Below are positions 9,354 to 61,494 of a stretch of 64,000 nucleotides of DNA, piece after piece. The notes under the pieces are model-generated. The model made no database searches, had not been told where the DNA came from, and worked only from the letters and a program-made list of their open reading frames with translations. The DNA lies in the IMG/VR virus record IMGVR_UViG_3300050120_000213, positions 1 through 64,000 of that record; one strand, 5' to 3'. Source of the stretch: a virus. The number at the start of each line of letters is the position of its first letter. The stretch's first letter is position 1. A program made the position numbers and the translations under genes.

Positions 9354-9652
9354 AGGTGGGTATGAAGTCCGGTAACTTTTTCAAAAATGGATTGCAATTG
9401 ATTGCAACCGACTGCGTGCTTACTATTGATCAGTTTGATCGACGTACCGTATATCGAATAAAACGCCATGGTGTACAAGTCATCCCCGGTCAATAAAATT
9501 TGTACTCGACGGATGTTTTTACTACGCGGAATAAAAAATTGCAGGCCATTTTTTAATGCAATAAATTTACTGGCACCGGTCATGACCGCAAAACGATTAC
9601 CACCTAACTGACGTAGGATGGTGGCCCCTACTTCTTTATCAATTATTTCCAT
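9350..9652 (-). CDS. Hypothetical phage protein
   Basis: TILRQLGGNRFAVMTGA...TGLHTHL; ATG 9652 behind ATGGAG RBS. Confidence 0.75.
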   Translation of the reverse strand: MEIIDKEVGATILRQLGGNRFAVMTGASKFIALKNGLQFFIPRSKNIRRVQILLTGDDLYTMAFYSIYGTSIKLINSKHAVGCNQLQSIFEKVTGLHTHL

Positions 9653-9716: not shown

Positions 9717-9750
9717 AAAAATGCAGCTAACCCCGAAAGATTAACTGCAT
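9717..9750 (-). terminator. Intrinsic terminator closing the GGY-NN array
   Basis: ATGCAGTTAATCT-TTCG-GGGTTAGCTGCAT-TTTT: 13-bp stem whose G-U pairs work only on the minus strand, UUCG loop. Confidence 0.8.
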
Positions 9751-9759
9751 CCCGTTCCC

Positions 9760-10112
9760 GTACCTCACCCTACCCGACCAAACCTCACCGCACCTGGCCT
9801 AACCCTACCGCACCTGCCTTACCGCACCCAACCTTACCGTGCCCAACCGTACCTTGCCCTGCCTGCCCAACCCTACCACACCTCACCCTACCGAACCCCA
9901 CCAAACCGCACCTGCCTAACCCTACCTTACCTAACCACACCAAACCGGACCATACCTGCCGTACCTGACCGGACCACACCTTACCTAACCATACCGGACC
10001 CTACCACACCTGCCATACCTAACCTCACCTCACCACACCGTACCAAGCCGCACCATACCTGCCATACCAGACCTCACCGCACCTCACCTCACCGGACCAC
10101 ACCTTACCTGCC
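9760..10112 (-). ncRNA. Array B of GGY-NN pentamers, 7 GGCA-delimited units (candidate guide RNAs, VIPR-like)
   Basis: Plus-strand tgcc at 9815, 9864, 9913, 9957, 10011, 10060, 10109 (spacings 49, 49, 44, 54, 49, 49 = 4+5n); strict GGY-NN register between them. Confidence 0.85.
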
Positions 10113-10763
10113 TCAATCTACCGCCACTTCTATTGCCTCGCTGATCAACCCTAACTTAATATTGATTAAGTCCAATAAATCTTGCAAAGGGATGTCCGTC
10201 AGCGGGAAAAACTTATTGCTGTTAATTGCGCTGGTGATGTTGCCGCGTGCTGATAGCAAACAGTGACGTAGATTTGAAAGGGACTGATACTCGCTCTTAG
10301 CGATTTCTTCCGATTCTTTCACCCCCATAGCTAGCCCAGTTTTACTAAAGGCGGGCATAAGCGCCGCTATTTCATCTTTAGAACCCAGCGGGGTTGATTT
10401 TACTGGGAAGCTCAAGGTGGTGATTTTAGACTCGTGTTTAATCACCGTTAGGTAAAGCACCTTAACTTCTTTATACAGCAAACTAACCTGCATAAGCAGG
10501 TACTTTTCTTGAGCGTAGTCCTTATTCCACGCCTCTTTAAACAAGTTGTGGAGGATGTCACTCGGGTTTCTAGCGGCGTCAATTAGCGCCTTTTTGTTTA
10601 GCAGTTTCGTCTGGGGGTCCACAAAGCCCATGAAATACAGGATCTGGGCTTTTGACATCTTTTTGCTCTTACTACGGTAGAGCTTTTCCAGTGCCATATA
10701 TTCCTCAGACAGATGCCCTGCTTCTGAGGATGAGTGGTCTATGGTCGTTCCTTCTTGCAACAT
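10113..10763 (-). CDS. Partner protein of the RAMP-like/array module (function unknown)
   Basis: ATG 10763 behind AGGAG; stop codon abuts the first GGCA of array B; LIDAARNPSDILHNLF...W...AQEKY motif. Confidence 0.75.
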   Translation of the reverse strand: MLQEGTTIDHSSSEAGHLSEEYMALEKLYRSKSKKMSKAQILYFMGFVDPQTKLLNKKALIDAARNPSDILHNLFKEAWNKDYAQEKYLLMQVSLLYKEVKVLYLTVIKHESKITTLSFPVKSTPLGSKDEIAALMPAFSKTGLAMGVKESEEIAKSEYQSLSNLRHCLLSARGNITSAINSNKFFPLTDIPLQDLLDLINIKLGLISEAIEVAVD

Positions 10764-10824
10764 AGTAAGTCTCCTAAACAAAACACCGGGGGTGGGTGCC
10801 CCCGGAGAGCGCCACGGCCAATTC

Positions 10825-11628
10825 TTACCCAGCCTTCATTGCCTTCAGACCCACGGGTTCCAAAGTCTGCCCGCGCTTCTTGATTTCTTCCTCAAACCAC
10901 TTGTTGATGTCCGCCGTGTCCCTGTCGAAATACGTGGGGTTATCAAAAGCGAGTTCTTGTGCGTGTCGCCCTTGCTTTTCGATTATTTCCAACACCCGTG
11001 GGTCATCGGGCTGTGCCACCAAAAACTTGCCGTAAGGGCCGCCTTTCTGGGGACGCCAATCACCAATCCCTACGATCCGCCCCGCCGCGTGGGCTAAGTT
11101 GGCAATCGAAGTATCATTGAGGGGGTTGGCCTTGTATGTAATGCGGACTCGTGGGATCACCCACTGGCGGAAAATGGGCCGAGTGCGGGGATCGGGCACG
11201 CTAGTCATGCCTGAATTCTTTGCCATCGTAGTATACAGTTCCGGCACGCCAAACAGGTTCAACTGCATGTCTTCATCCTGACTGGTTACGCTAATCCAGC
11301 GTTGGGCTTCGGACTTCCTGATCCCCGGCAAATCCAGCGCCACCGAGGACAAAGCCCCTTGAATCATTGCCACCGGCACATGAAACAACGTGGGTTCATC
11401 ATCGTTGCTGTTCATGTAAAAGCACTCTTGGTACTCCTTAAGCGGATAGTGCTTAATGTTCTCCGCTTTCGCCTGCTTGTTCATCGGTGCTTTGGGCAGC
11501 ATCAATTCCTGAAATGCCTTGCGTGCATAACGGTGCATGATGAAGGGGGATTGCCCAATCAAAGCCAAGTCGATACTCTCGACTTTAACTTCTTCAATAC
11601 TGATCTCTGCATTTTTAACGACCATCAT
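10825..11628 (-). CDS. RAMP/Cas7-like RNA-binding protein (Vipr-like)
   Basis: N-terminal strand LIGQSPFIMH, VPVAMIQGAL (like RAMP IP-x-S-x2-KG-x-L), RTRPIF-x2-W, C-terminal Gly-rich loop AGRIVGIGDWRPQKGGPYGKF; arrays on both sides. Confidence 0.75.
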   Translation of the reverse strand: MMVVKNAEISIEEVKVESIDLALIGQSPFIMHRYARKAFQELMLPKAPMNKQAKAENIKHYPLKEYQECFYMNSNDDEPTLFHVPVAMIQGALSSVALDLPGIRKSEAQRWISVTSQDEDMQLNLFGVPELYTTMAKNSGMTSVPDPRTRPIFRQWVIPRVRITYKANPLNDTSIANLAHAAGRIVGIGDWRPQKGGPYGKFLVAQPDDPRVLEIIEKQGRHAQELAFDNPTYFDRDTADINKWFEEEIKKRGQTLEPVGLKAMKAG

Positions 11629-11668: not shown

Positions 11669-11692
11669 GGAAGCCCACGTTAATAGGCTTCC
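11669..11692 (-). other. Hairpin at the 3' end of array A
   Basis: GGAAGCC-N10-GGCTTCC, no U tract; possible processing or stability element. Confidence 0.55.
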
Positions 11693-11698
11693 CACTAC

Positions 11699-11864
11699 TA
11701 ACCTTACCTGCCAAACCCGACCTTACCAAACCTAACCGTACCTTACCAAACCGCACCTGCCTTACCGCACCTTACCTAACCAAACCTCACCTGACCTCAC
11801 CGCACCATACCTCACCTGCCTAACCATACCCCACCCAGCCATACCTCACCTGACCATGCCTGCC
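11699..11864 (-). ncRNA. Array A of GGY-NN pentamers, 3 complete units plus a 2-pentamer stub
   Basis: Plus-strand tgcc at 11709, 11758, 11817, 11861 (spacings 49, 59, 44); 8, 11 and 9 NN dinucleotides in transcript order. Confidence 0.85.
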
Positions 11865-11892
11865 ACACAAAAATTGCAATCAATTGCAACGC

Positions 11893-12360
11893 TTACGCGC
11901 CCATGTCGTCACGACGGTTCTTGTACTCAGCAGCCAACTTGGCTTCGGCCAGTTCGCCTTGCCACACCATCGCGTTCATTTGCTGCTCATCCGACTCGGT
12001 AAAGTCATCCGGGGTCGTGGGTTGCTTCGGTTCTGCTGGCTCAATCGGACGGATTTCGCGGCCATTCTGTGCGGCAATTTCCGCTAGCTGAGCCCAGTAC
12101 TTCGGCATTTTTTTCCTGGCAATCACCATCTGTTTCGGTGTCAGCGAGCCGTACTTGAGGATGCCCTTGGCAAACGAGGTGAGTATTTCTGCGTCTGTGC
12201 TATTAAACCCAACTCCATTTGCATCATGGGTGGCCTCTGACGATTGCTCTGCTGCTGTCTGCCGTTCGTAGATCCGCAGCACCCCGCGAACTACGGCACG
12301 ATCATTTGTTTGCAAAAGGGCCTGAATCGACTCTTTAACTACTTGTTGGGCTTTGTTCAT
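11893..12360 (-). CDS. Hypothetical phage protein
   Basis: IYERQT...NGVGF...DAEILTSFA...KYWAQL motifs; ATGGAG RBS. Confidence 0.75.
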   Translation of the reverse strand: MNKAQQVVKESIQALLQTNDRAVVRGVLRIYERQTAAEQSSEATHDANGVGFNSTDAEILTSFAKGILKYGSLTPKQMVIARKKMPKYWAQLAEIAAQNGREIRPIEPAEPKQPTTPDDFTESDEQQMNAMVWQGELAEAKLAAEYKNRRDDMGA

Positions 12361-12393: not shown

Positions 12394-12421
12394 AGTATAG
12401 CAGCGTGACGCAGTTTGTCAA
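12394..12421 (-). promoter_or_regulatory. sigma70-type promoter TTGACA-N16-TATACT, nearest upstream promoter of the array/RAMP unit
   Basis: Consensus hexamers, TG extension. Confidence 0.85.
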
Positions 12422-13742: not shown

Positions 13743-13774
13743 AGTATTTACTGATTTTTTGCAATCAATTGCAA

Positions 13775-13939
13775 TTAGCGCTGTGATTTCCAAAGGGCCA
13801 CCAGGGCTTGCTTTAGCTGATCAGCGACTACTTTACCTCGTACTGCCTCAACTTCCTTGAGATAGCTATGCCGTTGCCAAGACGGTAGCACATAAATGGC
13901 AAGCAGTTCTTTATGTTGCGCTTCTTGTTCGGTCATCAT
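13775..13939 (-). CDS. 54-aa hypothetical protein (below ORF-track cutoff)
   Basis: MMTEQEAQHKELLA...LWKSQR with GGGAGG RBS. Confidence 0.55.
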   Translation of the reverse strand: MMTEQEAQHKELLAIYVLPSWQRHSYLKEVEAVRGKVVADQLKQALVALWKSQR

Positions 13940-29337: not shown

Positions 29338-30671
29338 TTTAACCTCACAATCTCCGCACCGACCCCGTAGTACTGAGTTAAGCGTGACATGTGGAACCCA
29401 GCGTATATCTTATCCCAGTCCACTAAATCAAGAGCAACTGGCTGTTTCTTTCCTTCCATCGCCCTCAATATTCTACCCAGTGATTGCCTTATATCCGACC
29501 TGGGAGTAGCAAAAACTAGAGAATTCCAATGCGGGACATTTGTTCCGGTTGAAACCATAGCATACGTCGCCAGCACCACCTTGGCTTTCTTAGTGGTTTC
29601 GTACTCGTGCTTCTTCATGCCGCCAATGTAGTAGCCAATTTGCTCCCCAGGCACGCCATTTTCAGTCAGCAGCAGAAACAACCGCTTGAGGTGATTATCG
29701 ATCAGGTCGCTGAGAACGAGGGTAGTCCGACCGGCTTTATAAGCCGCCTGGACAAACTCCACTATCTGCATGTTGCGGGAGTTGCTGGCACACATAGCGC
29801 GGGTAACCAGCGTCATATTGCCGGGGGTGTAGGGTATCGGCGTTTCTATCAAATCACCATTCAGATACTGCTTACGCCGTGGGATTTTCCAGCCGGTCTG
29901 CTTGACCAGAATCTTTGGGGTCATTGGCACCATTACACCGTGAATCAGCACGGGGCCAATGTTGCAGGTCACGATCTTCCACTTACCATCTTTGCGGTCG
30001 GTGGTGGCCGAGAAACCCAAGCGGTACTTAGCTGGAAATAACTTGAATACCACCGAGAAAAAATCGGGGGCCATCTGATGGACTTCATCCACGATCAAGA
30101 GGCCAAAATGTCGAAACATCTCTGGGGGGTAGCGATCCGGGATACACACGCTATGCGCCATCCCAATCACAATGCGCTTACCCTGCCAGTCACAAGTGTC
30201 TTGTTGTACTTTACCTACCAGATGCGGGGGCACGCCCAGTACATTAACGATAGCGTCGTACCAACTGTCCATCAGGTCAGTTTTATTGACAATAATCATT
30301 GTCGGCTGACCCAATGCACAGGCAATCACTCCGCCCGCTATCGACTTACCCCAGCCCGTGGGGGCATTAAAAATGTGGTTCTGCCCACTTTTTAATAACT
30401 CCAAGGATTTAAACGGTAGGATCTCTTGTTCTTTGTGCCGGGGGACAAAATTGCAATTGATTGCAACGGGGGGATAAGACTTCCGGTAGTCTACTTTCCC
30501 CAGGGGGACGCATTCACGTGGCACATACAAATTCCCGCCATCCCGGTACGACATATTCACGGGGTCGCCATACTTACTTATGAACTTGAATTCTTTTTCC
30601 AGCGTCGCACTCCACGGGTACGCTGCCATGGCTGCGGTAAATTCAGGTTGGGTATTTACGAGATAAACCAC
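29334..30671 (-). CDS. Superfamily 2 DNA helicase
   Basis: APTGWGKS, IVDEVH, GFSAT, QSLGRILR. Confidence 0.88.
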   Translation of the reverse strand: MVYLVNTQPEFTAAMAAYPWSATLEKEFKFISKYGDPVNMSYRDGGNLYVPRECVPLGKVDYRKSYPPVAINCNFVPRHKEQEILPFKSLELLKSGQNHIFNAPTGWGKSIAGGVIACALGQPTMIIVNKTDLMDSWYDAIVNVLGVPPHLVGKVQQDTCDWQGKRIVIGMAHSVCIPDRYPPEMFRHFGLLIVDEVHQMAPDFFSVVFKLFPAKYRLGFSATTDRKDGKWKIVTCNIGPVLIHGVMVPMTPKILVKQTGWKIPRRKQYLNGDLIETPIPYTPGNMTLVTRAMCASNSRNMQIVEFVQAAYKAGRTTLVLSDLIDNHLKRLFLLLTENGVPGEQIGYYIGGMKKHEYETTKKAKVVLATYAMVSTGTNVPHWNSLVFATPRSDIRQSLGRILRAMEGKKQPVALDLVDWDKIYAGFHMSRLTQYYGVGAEIVRLK

Positions 30672-33712: not shown

Positions 33713-34585
33713 TCAATCTTCCGTCGAGACAGGATCGGTACCAAGTACGACGGCCTTCATCGTGCGGGCACCCGGCACCGTCGCCGTGAAGTGGCTCAGT
33801 TCATTTTCCGACAATAGCTTCTTCGCTTCGGTCAGCGTGATTGAAGCCACGACGTTAAATATTTCTTGGCCCACCGCCGCAATCAAACCGTTTTTATCGA
33901 CAATCTTAGTCGAATTGACTTGCGGAGAGAACTCCACATAGTTCTGGTGGGTGCCCCACAACTGCACCGATTTGTTCGAAGGGAAGTGGTCAGATTTTGC
34001 AATCAATTGCAATTTCTTCTTCAATTCCTCCTGGCGCTTGAGCAACGGTGTTACGTCCACCTTATTGAGTTCGCGCTGAATTTCCACGTACTCGTCTACC
34101 AACGTTAAAACCTCGCTGCTGGCTTCTTCGGTAGCAATCAGCGATTGTGGCTCTTGCTGCTGCGAGACCTGTGCAGGTGACAGTTCCTGCACTTGGCTGC
34201 CGCCCTGCTGAGCAGTTTGATGCAATTCGTCAATGACGGCGTGAGTAAACGTGTTGCCCTGGATCTTGACAGACACAATAGGCTTCTTTTTTACACCATC
34301 GGCATGGGTCACATGCATCACTGTACCGTCTACCCCATATAGAGTTTCAAACGAACTTGAAAGTGCCTGTATCGGCATCTTTGCGGTATCGCTAGGAATG
34401 GGAGCCACGGTTTGGTCTACTGCGACCTTAACTTTGGCTTCTACATCCTTTTTCATTTTTAGGAGATAGTCTGCATTTTGTTTTTCAAAAGCGGCATTTT
34501 CTGCAGGGGTAGAACTCGGTACCGGCTTATCAATCGTGGGTTCCACGACCTTCACCGGCTTACCTTTTACGAATGATAAAGCCAT
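33713..34585 (-). CDS. Hypothetical protein
   Basis: ATG 34585 behind AAGGAG; own promoter. Confidence 0.7.
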   Translation of the reverse strand: MALSFVKGKPVKVVEPTIDKPVPSSTPAENAAFEKQNADYLLKMKKDVEAKVKVAVDQTVAPIPSDTAKMPIQALSSSFETLYGVDGTVMHVTHADGVKKKPIVSVKIQGNTFTHAVIDELHQTAQQGGSQVQELSPAQVSQQQEPQSLIATEEASSEVLTLVDEYVEIQRELNKVDVTPLLKRQEELKKKLQLIAKSDHFPSNKSVQLWGTHQNYVEFSPQVNSTKIVDKNGLIAAVGQEIFNVVASITLTEAKKLLSENELSHFTATVPGARTMKAVVLGTDPVSTED

Positions 34586-39875: not shown

Positions 39876-39936
39876 AGATATTTTTGCAATCAATTGCAAT
39901 TTCTTCTTCAAGGGGCTAGGGGCCAATCCTCTGGTT

Positions 39937-42962: not shown

Positions 42963-42992
42963 CGCCACTCCTAGTTTTGCAATCAATTGCAA

Positions 42993-43481
42993 TTAGCGCT
43001 TGGTGCTGCCGCTCCACCACAGCCATTTGTCTTGTGTTGGGGTAGGCACAACGGGGGGTGCTTTTACTGTTGAGGCAGTTTCTGCTACTTTTGCAGACAA
43101 ATAATCAGTTTTTGCTGAATTGATCTTAGCTTCCTTTAAAGCGTCTTGAGCAACAGCCTGGGCCTTATCTACAGTAGCGGCGTGCTTATCAACCTTACTC
43201 GATAAGCCACCAACCTTTTCCGTTAGGGCTGTCACAGCTAGACTTAGGGTATCCAGTTCCCTATCGGACCTCGATAATTCTTGCTGGCTATGGGCATCCT
43301 GATCACTCAAACGCTTCTCATAATCTGAGCGTAAATCTGAAATCGTCTTGGCATTGTGTTGTTCTGTTATAGACGCTCCTGTGTATAGGCCGGTGATACC
43401 GCTACACAGACCAGACATCACGATCACAGTAACCCATAGCCATGGGCGGCAATCCAGAGTCTTAGTGGAAGGGGTAGACAT
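42993..43481 (-). CDS. Membrane-anchored coiled-coil protein (i-spanin-like)
   Basis: N-terminal TM plus coiled coil next to the endolysin; no o-spanin identified. Confidence 0.45.
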   Translation of the reverse strand: MSTPSTKTLDCRPWLWVTVIVMSGLCSGITGLYTGASITEQHNAKTISDLRSDYEKRLSDQDAHSQQELSRSDRELDTLSLAVTALTEKVGGLSSKVDKHAATVDKAQAVAQDALKEAKINSAKTDYLSAKVAETASTVKAPPVVPTPTQDKWLWWSGSTKR

Positions 43482-47846: not shown

Positions 47847-47892
47847 AGTGGCTCACCAAATCTTGGTTAGGTACTTTTGCAATCAATTGCAA

Positions 47893-48381
47893 TCAGGGGT
47901 TGACGGCGAACATACCACTGTCAGGCAAGTAGATAAAAGTGCTATTAAAGTACCCTGCTGTCATGCTCTGGTTATAAATCACCGACCCACCCACAGAAGA
48001 CGGGTCCAATTCCGCTGGAAGTTGATAGCTGAATTGCGTGTTAGTTAGGATCGAGCAATTAAACGCCCCGTTGTACCCAGAAGGAGTTGCCCCAGAAATC
48101 ACCAGGGGCACAATAGTACCGATCCTAAACGTGTGGGGCACAGTCGTAGTCGCCACCGCAATATTAGCGTTAGCTGTAATCGAGCTTATAACATACCCTA
48201 GGGTGGACCCAATCAATGGCCTGCTGACTATTAGCGTTCCCGCCACAGAGTAAATATTGACGTAATATCGCGCCCCAAACAAATTCCAGGTAACCACCAC
48301 GTTATAAAGCTGGTTGTCGAACGTGGCTGGAAACTGAAAATTCTGGTTTACCGAGGGAGTAAAAGGCGTGAAAGTAGTCAT
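47893..48381 (-). CDS. Baseplate plug-like protein with inserted beta module
   Basis: WN-x4-RYYVNIY...PLIGS; synteny. Confidence 0.55.
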   Translation of the reverse strand: MTTFTPFTPSVNQNFQFPATFDNQLYNVVVTWNLFGARYYVNIYSVAGTLIVSRPLIGSTLGYVISSITANANIAVATTTVPHTFRIGTIVPLVISGATPSGYNGAFNCSILTNTQFSYQLPAELDPSSVGGSVIYNQSMTAGYFNSTFIYLPDSGMFAVNP

Positions 48382-51124: not shown

Positions 51125-53023
51125 TTATTGAACTAGGCTTGCGCCAGTCACAGAAACATCGGCACCAGGGGCGGTGTTTACCGTTACCCCGATGTTTTGC
51201 TGGGGTGTAACGGTGTTATTTGCTTTTCTAGGGGCGTCTTGGTCATTGTTCATACGCGGGCCGAAAATCTGATTGCCACCCCCCTCACGGAACAGGCTCT
51301 TGATGTAGTTGGCGTATTCCGTCATCTTTACGGACGCGGCACTAGGTGGCACTCCGGTGTGGTTGGGAGTTTGCGTAGCTGGCTGCACTCCGGTAGGAGT
51401 GGGAGTTTGCGTAGCTGGCTGGGCGGCAGAATTAGAGGGATCGTAATCCGCTAAGTTTAAGTCCACCCCATACGCGTCATACTTATTCAAATAATCTGAG
51501 GTTTCTTTCGGCAAAAACTGATCCCACTGGTCGCCATGCCCAGCGTGCCACACACCTTTCTTATCCTTGTACCCGTTGATATCCTTGTCGAGATTGCCCT
51601 CACCCCAATCGTAAGCGGCGAGAGCTTTTCTCATATCCCCGAACTTGGCAAGATCGTGCTGCAACAACTTTTGGGCAGCACCCCGTGAAGCCTTTTCATC
51701 AAATGGGTCAACTCCGTACTGCTTAGCAGTATCGTCCATTAACTGATAGGCCCCCTTAGCATGGCTATTGGGGTTTTCTGCGTTGGGATTATTGTCACTC
51801 TCAATGCCCTTGACCGAATCGAGCAGTGCGTTCCAGCTACTAGTAGCCCCACCAGCCGAGGGGGCAAGCCCTTCTGGTTGTCCCGCTTCAGTGTGATTTT
51901 TCTTCCATCCACCCAATACGTTATCCCAGATCCAGTCCCCAGCTTTTTGAAATCCACCCACTACGCCAGGGGCGTAAGGCTCGCCCTCTTTGTGGGGTGG
52001 AGACGCAACGGCATCAACTAAATTTGCAGCGCCTGCTATCAAGCTGACGCTAAGTTTAGTGGCAGCATCAGACCAGCGATCTAATGCGGGGGTGAGCTTA
52101 ATAACAGCAGCATCAAACGCGGTTTCGATTTCTTTGAAATTGGCAGCTTGGTGCGTGTCAAACGCGCTAGCTTCGTCAGCCTGTGATTGGCTAACCCCCA
52201 TTTCTTTCCAATGCGAATTGAATTGATCTTGCGCTTTGTCAAGTTCGCCGCTATTAGCGTACGAACCCAGGTTCCGCATTTGGTCGGGGCTGTAGAAATT
52301 CGTGTAGCCGAACGCCTGCGCTTGTGTCAGCGCAAAAGCAGGGCTGGTCTTTTCCCATTCGGAATACTGCTTGCCTACGCGCTTAGCGAAGTCAAACTGT
52401 AATTCTTCAGCGTCTTCGCTGTTGATTTGCTTGCTGGTGATGCCAGCATTCAAGAGTGGAGTTTGCTGAGTAACGTCTTCCTTAGCGTTTTCCATTGACT
52501 CTAGATCATTGGAATTTAAGCCAAATCTCTTGAAAAATGTGTTGAAAGCGGATTCTTTGCCGAGTTCGAGACCTAGACCACGACTGGAGGAATTCTGGGC
52601 GGCCACGCTACTGGCGGAAAGTAACGTGCTGCCGAATATCGTCGCGCCCAGCCCACCAATAGCCCCGGCCAAACCACCAAACGCCGAGAAATTGATCGAG
52701 CCGCGCACCAGACCTTGCATGAATTTGGAGCTTTTCTCGATTTCTTTCGAGATATTGCCCCACGACTTCTCGCTGGCCTTAGCGTTCTTGGTGATGAGAT
52801 CGAAAGCACGGGGTACAGCAGGGTCTTTCGCACCCTTTTGTACCCTATCAAAAGCAGTCCCCGCCGACTCAAACGCGTTCTTAACCCCGCCGATTTCTTT
52901 ATTGACGGATGCCCAGGCTTCGGGGTTGTTCTTTAAATGTTCGCGGTAGGCGTTGAATTTATCCGCAAACACGTCAAAGTCTTCGCTATCGACTTCGATC
53001 TTGATAATTGGTTTATCAGCCAC
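51125..53023 (-). CDS. Tape-measure protein with lytic transglycosylase domain
   Basis: IES...AKGAYQLM-x2-TA, ALAAYDWG-x-GN, ET-x2-Y; follows the chaperone. Confidence 0.8.
   Translation of the reverse strand: MADKPIIKIEVDSEDFDVFADKFNAYREHLKNNPEAWASVNKEIGGVKNAFESAGTAFDRVQKGAKDPAVPRAFDLITKNAKASEKSWGNISKEIEKSSKFMQGLVRGSINFSAFGGLAGAIGGLGATIFGSTLLSASSVAAQNSSSRGLGLELGKESAFNTFFKRFGLNSNDLESMENAKEDVTQQTPLLNAGITSKQINSEDAEELQFDFAKRVGKQYSEWEKTSPAFALTQAQAFGYTNFYSPDQMRNLGSYANSGELDKAQDQFNSHWKEMGVSQSQADEASAFDTHQAANFKEIETAFDAAVIKLTPALDRWSDAATKLSVSLIAGAANLVDAVASPPHKEGEPYAPGVVGGFQKAGDWIWDNVLGGWKKNHTEAGQPEGLAPSAGGATSSWNALLDSVKGIESDNNPNAENPNSHAKGAYQLMDDTAKQYGVDPFDEKASRGAAQKLLQHDLAKFGDMRKALAAYDWGEGNLDKDINGYKDKKGVWHAGHGDQWDQFLPKETSDYLNKYDAYGVDLNLADYDPSNSAAQPATQTPTPTGVQPATQTPNHTGVPPSAASVKMTEYANYIKSLFREGGGNQIFGPRMNNDQDAPRKANNTVTPQQNIGVTVNTAPGADVSVTGASLVQ
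51342..51421 (-). repeat. 36-bp tandem duplication in the tape-measure gene
   Basis: Encodes QPATQTPTPTGV-QPATQTPNHTGV. Confidence 0.7.
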
Positions 53024-60612: not shown

Positions 60613-61494
60613 TTAGTTGAACTCCTTGTTGATACGAACTTGCAGTTGAGCAGGCGACTTGAACTGGTCCATCCACGCGCTCGGGGAACCTACGAACTCG
60701 CTGATACGGCGGCCCGTGCGGTCATGCTTGACGATCTCGCGCAGCGTGCCTGGGGCAATGTCTGCCGGGTGAGCGGCGACGCGTTCTGCGTCAGCGTAGA
60801 TTGCCTTTTCGGCCACATCGAGCATCGAGTCAGGCACGACGGACAGATCGCGGTCTTTCCAGTCCGAGCTATGCGGCTTGAACTTGGCGGCCAAACGGCG
60901 GCGGTAATTCACCGGGGTTTCACCAGCCAGGGGGCCGGGAGCGCGGTCACCGAACGCATTTGCGACACCATCGGCACGGGCTTGAATTTCAGCCAGCGCC
61001 ACGCGGTCAGCGTCCGAGATGTGCACAGCGCCGGTCAGCGCGGCGAGGCGGTCTTGCATGTCCTTGAATTCAAGGTCACGCTTGGCCGAATCGGCTTTGG
61101 CTTCAGCTTCCGCATCGGCACGCATTTTGTCGGCCTTGGCTTTTTCTTCAGCTTCTGCGTCGGCCTTGGCCTTATCGGCAGCGGTTTCAGCGGGCTTTGC
61201 AGCAGCTTCGGCTTCAGCATCGGCACGAGCTTTATCAGCTTTTGCCTTTTCTTCAGCTTCAGCGTCAGCGCGGGCCTTGTCAGCCTTAGCCTTTTCTTCC
61301 TTCTCTTTTTCTTCGGCATCGGCGCGCATTTTGTCAGCGCGTGCCGCATCGTTCTTGAACACGTCCATCACCGCGTCACACTTGGCGGAGAGATTCTTTG
61401 CCCACGCAGGTTCTGCATCAGCGCGAGCCGCATCGGCCTTTGCCTTTTCAGCAGCTTCCGTATCAGCTTTGGCCTTCAACTCTGCTTCAGTCAT
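60613..61494 (-). CDS. Capsid scaffolding protein
   Basis: Repeated KAKADKARADAEAEE helices; follows the protease. Confidence 0.7.
   Translation of the reverse strand: MTEAELKAKADTEAAEKAKADAARADAEPAWAKNLSAKCDAVMDVFKNDAARADKMRADAEEKEKEEKAKADKARADAEAEEKAKADKARADAEAEAAAKPAETAADKAKADAEAEEKAKADKMRADAEAEAKADSAKRDLEFKDMQDRLAALTGAVHISDADRVALAEIQARADGVANAFGDRAPGPLAGETPVNYRRRLAAKFKPHSSDWKDRDLSVVPDSMLDVAEKAIYADAERVAAHPADIAPGTLREIVKHDRTGRRISEFVGSPSAWMDQFKSPAQLQVRINKEFN

Follow-up and report, generated by a model that had tools for sequence, protein, structure and literature searches.

VIPR (Viral Interference Programmable Repeat) is a CRISPR-like, phage-borne system of RNA-guided DNA silencing that was first described in 2026 (bioRxiv 10.64898/2026.04.26.720920,.720927, 10.64898/2026.10.15.759431). 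Its two components are a minimal RAMP protein, Vipr, and vrRNAs with 9-16 GGY/NN repeats. Each repeat is bound by one Vipr protomer, and the GGY is hidden while the NN is presented (VIPR preprints, bioRxiv 2026). The NN dinucleotides pair with DNA as NNxNNx, i.e., with a 1-nt skip (bioRxiv 10.64898/2026.04.26.720920,.720927), and the skipped base usually falls on the wobble position of a codon. Targets of the complex are rival phages, satellites, or other VIPR systems, whose transcription it represses, and guides aimed at the vipr genes of rivals are a published theme (VIPR preprints, bioRxiv 2026). Seven types (I-VII), 670 typed Vipr proteins, and the accessory genes vap1-6 have been distinguished (VIPR preprints, bioRxiv 2026). 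The characterised systems are the type II system of Escherichia phage SUSP1 and that of a Pseudomonas fulva prophage (bioRxiv 10.64898/2026.04.26.720920,.720927, 10.64898/2026.10.15.759431). vrRNAs are recognised as at least four tandem YNNGG/GGYNN repeats with a fixed GGY and hypervariable NN, on the same strand as an adjoining vipr gene. One architecture is the staggered array, in which adjacent vrRNAs overlap by 1 nt according to the legend of fig. S18 of the VIPR paper.

The locus described here is very probably the vrRNA array, in two parts (array A and array B), of a VIPR system in an uncultured 99.5-kb myovirus. VIPR and staggered arrays were both described previously, and array B is a new, uncultured example of an already known system. 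The window, i.e., the whole 64-kb stretch of DNA analysed, is the first 64 kb of a 99,510-bp IMG/VR virus record that is rated 100% complete, with a GC content of 51.6%. Sheath, baseplate, and tail-fibre genes mark the phage as a myovirus. Its tail sheath has just 45% identity to the sheaths of Klebsiella, Yersinia, and Pantoea phages. Every gene around the arrays is on the minus strand (Table 1). In order of transcription the locus reads promoter-like site, orf155, array A, hairpin, vipr, hairpin, partner gene, array B, and terminator hairpin. The promoter-like site upstream of orf155 could possibly drive the whole unit. orf155 is not conserved in relatives. The hairpin that closes array A sits about 40 nt ahead of the vipr start codon, and the terminator-like hairpin between vipr and the partner gene may act as an attenuator of transcription that continues into the partner gene and array B.

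Table 1. Positions of the features of the VIPR locus within the window.
Feature	Position	Strand	Description
Promoter-like site	12394..12421	-	TTGACA-16-TATACT, 11/12 match, extended -10 TG; upstream of orf155
orf155	11893-12360	-	Between the promoter-like site and array A
Array A	11699..11864	-	Units A1 (8 pentamers), A2 (11), and A3 (9) plus a 2-pentamer stub; GGCA punctuation as in array B
Hairpin closing array A	11669..11693	-	GGGAAGCC-N9-GGCTTCC; MFE -30.5 kcal/mol, z -4.7
vipr	10825..11628	-	267-aa RAMP-fold protein (predicted); G-loop GIGDWRPQKGG, thumb motif RPIFRQW
Hairpin between vipr and partner gene	10786..10805	-	7-bp all-GC stem, T-rich tail; terminator-like
Partner (vap-like) gene	10113..10763	-	216 aa, ATG start, AGGAG ribosome-binding site
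Array B	9760..10112	-	Seven vrRNA units, B1-B7, each after a 4-nt GGCA
B1	10108-10064	-	9 pentamers
B2	10059-10015	-	9 pentamers
B3	10010-9961	-	10 pentamers
B4	9956-9917	-	8 pentamers
B5	9912-9868	-	9 pentamers
B6	9863-9819	-	9 pentamers
B7	9814-9760	-	11 pentamers
Intrinsic terminator closing array B	9717..9751	-	15-bp hairpin, then U5; MFE -21 kcal/mol, z -3.8
Next promoter-like site	9713-9686		Beyond the array B terminator

Other repeats occur in the same genome. A dispersed 17-bp motif, TTGCAAT-(CAA/TTG)-TTGCAAT, has 47 strand-matches with at most 2 mismatches, against 0.85 expected. About 24 sites lie in the window, e.g., at 2110-2127, 9391-9408, 11873-11890, 13758-13775, 30450-30467, 33996-34013, 39883-39900, 42976-42993, and 47876-47893. 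Many of the sites inspected are intergenic; one is 10 bp upstream of array A and one lies just past orf105. The motif probably serves as an operator, promoter, or terminator element specific to the phage. Two tandem repeats are located within minus-strand genes: a 36-bp repeat (2 copies, 51349-51421) in a tail lysin/tape-measure-like gene of 632 aa, and a 45-bp repeat (2.1 copies, 61206-61299) in a gene of 293 aa.

Array B begins right behind the TGA stop of the partner gene. Read on the minus strand from 10112 to 9760, it holds 65 GGY-NN pentamers that are cut by GGCA into seven units. The first GGCA occupies 10112-10109, and the last pentamer stops at 9760. The seven strings of NN dinucleotides that a sequence-only reading of this DNA had listed are, letter for letter, those of B1-B7. 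That reading had also stated that all 16 dinucleotides occur and that no unit repeats another. The first statement holds when arrays A and B are counted together, and the second agrees with our finding that any two units have at most 3 NN in common in register. Across the 95 pentamers of both arrays, the first position is G in 95/95 and the second is G in 95/95; the third is T in 88 and C in 7. With 8-11 pentamers, each unit carries 16-22 informative bases. The two arrays flank two genes and share their strand, as VIPR vrRNAs do. They are the only such arrays in the record. A pattern of six GGTNN pentamers with at most 2 mismatches gave 58 minus-strand matches in the 99.5-kb genome, all within arrays A and B; neither the plus strand nor a backwards control gave any match in the same genome. 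Each frame of the transcribed (minus) strand of the array contains 5-10 stop codons. Thus, the array is non-coding and a translated repeat is ruled out.

The boundaries between units are very small. GGCA is a true 4-nt separator, so the 5-nt register moves by one base at every GGCA. Viewed as pentamers, the boundary is a GGCAG and a following GGYNN that have one G in common. The start of B6 reads GGCA|GGCAG|GGCAA, so its first pentamer is ambiguous and is possibly a second separator. We found no tail, ribozyme, or hairpin between units; hairpins occur only behind the last unit of each array. A search of the window against Rfam returned no family, with no ribozyme and no CRISPR repeat family.

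The gene between the two hairpins encodes a protein of the RAMP fold, as judged from its predicted structure. An AlphaFold2 model built with 26 homologues reached a pLDDT of 85 and a pTM of 0.82 (a single-sequence model, with a pLDDT of 32, was unusable). In a Foldseek search with the former model, 46/46 matches at E <= 0.001 were CRISPR RAMPs (Cmr4, Csm3, type VII Cas7, and gRAMP), with a best E of 1.5e-5. The window Vipr is therefore modelled as a Cas7/Csm3-like RAMP with the RRM core, glycine-rich loop, and thumb that define the VIPR fold. It matches the profile phrog_4652 (E 1.1e-16) over residues 16-204. VpaE1_087 of the Felix-O1-like Escherichia phage vB_EcoM-VpaE1 matches the same profile with an E of 7.9e-97, and the two proteins are related to each other by BLASTP (E 4e-8) and by hhalign (probability 96.9% over the thumb and G-loop). 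VpaE1_087 has H17, K33, E71, M72, R138, C173, D177, W178, and R179 at the numbering of the SUSP1 cryo-EM paper. We take it as SUSP1-type because it possesses all nine published residues and lies between tailed GGTNN arrays, an assignment by residues and context and not by the SUSP1 sequence itself. R150, D190, W191, and R192 of the window Vipr align to R138, D177, W178, and R179 of VpaE1_087. By inspection, H32 lies in the same PF(I/L)xH motif as H17. All 26 homologues keep R150, D190, and R192, and nearly all keep W191. By alignment, then, the window Vipr appears to keep the counterparts of the published GGY-reading residues H17, R138, D177, W178, and R179. More distant homologues of Vipr (25-28% identity) are encoded by Gordonia and Mycobacterium phages, Pseudomonas phage LESphi2, and a Cylindrospermopsis cyanophage, in each case with the annotation 'hypothetical protein'.

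The second gene is poorly matched by existing databases. The partner protein had no match in Pfam, PDB profiles, or the atlas and no close homologue, and it has no recognisable DNA-binding or nuclease domain. Its family in related loci is phrog_15946 (30 of 31 members), which itself has no Pfam or PDB match. The 216-aa protein of the window is tied to this family by BLASTP and is a divergent member. The family comes after vipr in 58 of about 75 related loci that have a downstream ORF. vipr and this accessory, vap-like gene form a minimal operon, as in described VIPR loci.

We found 238 relatives of the locus in IMG/VR and fetched 80 loci for comparison. The order of vipr, partner gene, and GGCA-punctuated array is kept among these 80 loci. 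Runs of at least 5 perfect pentamers occur on the vipr strand in 69/80, and the 4-nt GGCA punctuation recurs: 194 GGCA-delimited units lie on the vipr strand and none on the other. In most loci, the start of the array coincides with the stop codon of a partner ORF of about 155 aa directly 3' of vipr, or follows it within a few hundred bases. Arrays of close relatives vary in which whole units they contain and in what order, as spacer cassettes do. Six relatives (L014, L024, L025, and L026-L028) carry very long arrays downstream of vipr, of 1.5-2.4 kb and dozens of units, with many degenerate pentamers in which the 5-nt register is retained. A BLASTN search with the region matched only unannotated intergenic DNA of Felix-O1-like coliphages. 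In Escherichia phage vB_EcoM-VpaE1 (L001, KM657822.1, ~57.9-59.7 kb) there are five unannotated GGTNN arrays around VpaE1_086/087, each with a conserved leader (CACTTAAGAGTCTT..TAAGTGA) in front and a hairpin (GGGTAGTTAATCGGAGCTAC) behind. Arrays and genes together make up a SUSP1-type VIPR locus that the record leaves unannotated.

One unit from this clade has a candidate target. We compared 137 units with at least 9 NN each, taken from the window and its relatives, with 2.5 Mb of related phage sequence at skips of 0-3, allowing mismatches and with shuffled controls. The sole perfect match in the clade was found at a skip of 1. A unit of relative L014 (L014:4860-4904; NN string TA AA GC CC CG TA TC GC AA) agrees at 18/18 positions with a site in the vipr gene of L010 (L010:3675-3700), another relative. 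Agreement is 17/18 with the vipr genes of L017 (L017:3663) and L018 (L018:3072); for shuffled units, sites with 0-1 mismatch numbered 0.0. In the L014/L010 pair, each of the eight skipped bases is the third base of a codon within the conserved motif F-A-E-Y-R-G-A-F-Y. The match halts at the GGCA boundaries of the unit. The 'AG' of GGCAG does not belong to the recognised string in this pair. The pair reproduces the published 1-nt-skip rule and the theme of targeting a rival's vipr in independent data and in the staggered architecture.

A cross-phage match of 18/18 with wobble-aligned skips means that the NN carry information. This bears on whether the array is a guide at all. It might instead be a slippage-derived pentanucleotide satellite, a series of two-tier G-quadruplexes, or a protein-binding platform in which the NN are neutral, as with TRAP on GAG repeats or CsrA sponges. 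A 5-nt period with a fixed GG in every repeat would permit G2N3 quadruplexes, and TRAP reads triplets spaced by 2-3 nt. The positional entropies of the 95 pentamers are 0, 0, 0.38, 1.90, and 1.93 bits (maximum 2), so the NN are near random, and only 3 adjacent pentamers in both arrays are identical. Slippage would not be expected to leave this pattern, and the contrast with a slippage satellite drawn earlier from the letters is borne out. Quadruplexes leave unexplained the conserved T/C after GG and the strict tie, in strand and position, between array and RAMP gene across 80 loci. We regard a non-guide array as extremely improbable. TRAP-like or CsrA-like sponges, two-tier G-quadruplexes, a Rho-loading element (C-rich on the antisense strand), and Shine-Dalgarno mimicry were each considered and dropped given the RAMP neighbour and the VIPR papers.

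The sequence-only reading had proposed that each unit is a separate guide for a gapped target. The proposal is supported in kind by the VIPR mechanism and by the L014/L010 match bounded by GGCA. The predicted RAMP fold, the GGY-reading residues, and the synteny of partner gene and array in 80 relatives add further support.

For the units of the window itself we did not find a convincing target. The IMG/VR, metagenome, and genome collections were scanned for exact 1-skip patterns only, and published guides accept near-matches down to 80%. The patterns of B7, A2, B3, B1, and B5 had 0 matches in IMG/VR, and those of B7 and A2 had 0 matches in the metagenome and genome collections. The B6 pattern matched 18 IMG/VR contigs, which collapse to about 3-5 site families; one is in an unknown 402-aa protein, one in a portal gene, and one in marine T4-like contigs of 39% GC. 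For the three families with an assigned reading frame (Family 1, L104, and Family 2), the skip falls on the first codon position. No other unit of the window converges on the contigs matched by B6, and its backwards control matched 2 contigs. We judge the B6 matches to be chance because the site families are so few, the skip falls on codon position 1 and not 3, no second unit converges, and the backwards control also found 2 contigs. Against 49 whole related phage records and 31 further loci (2.5 Mb), with skips of 0-3, the window units gave nothing with at most 2 mismatches beyond the shuffled rate. In the genome of the phage itself, no site for them exceeds the shuffled controls; a 16/18 match of A3 at about 52.5 kb, on the reverse strand of the record, is at chance level. 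The comparison of gapped strings with shuffled strings that had been suggested as a check therefore gave no enrichment for the window's own strings, and none of the ten units gained a convincing target from the exact scans (six units in IMG/VR, two of them also in metagenomes and genomes) or the mismatch-tolerant scan of 2.5 Mb.

A lack of targets would also be expected if the units were decoys or competitors that soak up or redirect the Vipr of a rival, or if they autoregulated the locus. Satellites and VIPR-null phages do carry solo vrRNAs that redirect VIPR complexes (VIPR preprints, bioRxiv 2026). The L014 guide, moreover, matches the vipr gene of L014 itself at 16/18, the two read positions that differ doing so via amino-acid changes (Y/F and F/Y). 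These 16/18 are 89% of the bases, near the published 80% threshold, and raise the question of how self-silencing is avoided. The decoy vrRNAs described are solo RNAs on elements that lack vipr, whereas this phage has its own intact vipr and partner gene beside the arrays, and no site in its own genome matches above the controls. We consider a decoy or autoregulatory role very unlikely.

We infer Vipr binding, the processing of units, DNA silencing, and the role of the partner from the literature or from homology. On the guide reading, minus-strand transcription would run through array A, vipr, the partner gene, and array B and end at the terminator at 9751-9717. Vipr protomers would bind one per pentamer, sequester the GGY, and present the NN. 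Each GGCA-delimited unit of 8-11 pentamers would then act as one guide with its 16-22 informative bases, pairing with double-stranded DNA in the pattern NNxNNx... with one skipped base per repeat. The bound complex would shut down transcription in a competing mobile element. As a separator that shifts the register by one base, the 4-nt GGCA would be the boundary of a tail-less staggered array.

An alternative concerns the separation of the units. The array could stay uncut as one RNA of about 350 nt with several Vipr filaments in series, GGCA being a mere hinge or register shift, or with only some units functional. The interior of the array, where neither a tail nor a hairpin nor a ribozyme (Rfam) was found and hairpins are confined to the array ends, is compatible with this. 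So is the published record, since sRNA-seq confirmed two other special VIPR architectures but not staggered arrays (VIPR paper). The legend of fig. S18, for its part, describes individual processed vrRNAs that abut with a 1-nt overlap. The L014/L010 match covers exactly one GGCA-delimited unit and ends at its boundaries, and the length of the units is close to the 9-16 repeats of characterised vrRNAs. We therefore think an uncut array unlikely. For the guide reading with separate units, we tentatively suggest that GGCA itself may be the maturation and length-setting signal: at the shift, one Vipr filament would stop and another begin, or the RNA would be cleaved there, and the phage would hold ten guides against unsampled competitors. 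We put this forward as possible rather than probable. If true, a short single transcript would yield seven or more guides without a repeat handle, ribozyme, or pseudoknot, and the delimiting of guides by GGCA would be a principle so far without experimental demonstration in any RNA-guided system.

It has been proposed that the RAMPs of CRISPR descend from VIPR in viruses, and that VIPR offers a new, programmable logic of DNA binding. The locus adds an intact example, from an uncultured myovirus of about 100 kb, of the least-studied, staggered type, with only 4 nt between guides, and is useful as a clean case of how tail-less arrays are delimited. The 80 loci with vipr, phrog_15946, and a GGCA array, with their cassette-like turnover and one guide-to-rival-vipr pair, provide a comparative set for studying maturation and guide turnover. 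Such arrays are unannotated in public phage records (e.g., the five in Escherichia phage VpaE1) and are easily taken for satellites.

The locus is most similar to the characterised VIPR systems of SUSP1 and P. fulva. It is phage-borne, has a two-gene operon of vipr plus partner, and encodes a predicted RAMP-fold Vipr with a GDWR G-loop and an RPIFR thumb motif. GGY/NN pentamers on the same strand lie both upstream and downstream of the genes, and a putative guide/target pair in the clade (L014/L010) has the 1-nt skip, the wobble alignment, and a rival vipr as target. Repeats number 8-11 per unit here against 9-16 in the characterised systems. The window Vipr differs in its length (267 aa against about 195 aa) and in an added C-terminal helical region. 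Its similarity to the SUSP1-type protein by BLASTP and hhalign is limited to the thumb and G-loop, whereas the PHROG profile spans residues 16-204. The partners differ as well: phrog_15946 here and the unrelated phrog_5926 in the Felix-like case. Unlike the characterised SUSP1 vrRNAs, the internal units of the window lack individual leaders and a 3' tail of about 40 nt or pseudoknot, and GGCA alone separates them. A 3' tail (hairpin or pseudoknot) that caps each vrRNA is a trait of the type II architecture, not of VIPR as a whole, and the VIPR paper includes staggered arrays without tails as a further architecture. The GGCA-punctuated, tail-less arrays fit the published staggered type as its fig. 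S18 legend describes it. The likeness, drawn from that legend alone, is that units are contiguous, each beginning where its neighbour ends, and that GGCAG and GGYNN share one G, a 1-nt overlap.

CRISPR-Cas is a more distant comparison. A tandem-repeat scan of the window found no identical 23-50 nt repeats with unique spacers. We detected no cas1/cas2, Cas6, or nuclease; the locus consists of a RAMP gene and a partner gene only. The guide in VIPR is non-contiguous and phage-encoded, and is without known acquisition machinery. The resemblance is to the backbone of Class 1 systems (Cas7/Csm3/Cmr4 on crRNA), which has the same protein fold, one protomer per fixed step of RNA, and a thumb that periodically breaks the guide-target duplex. 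As in Class 1 systems, there are many different guides, which turn over as cassettes among relatives. The step differs between the two: it is 5 nt with 3 bases hidden in VIPR and 6 nt with 1 flipped base in Class 1 CRISPR-Cas.
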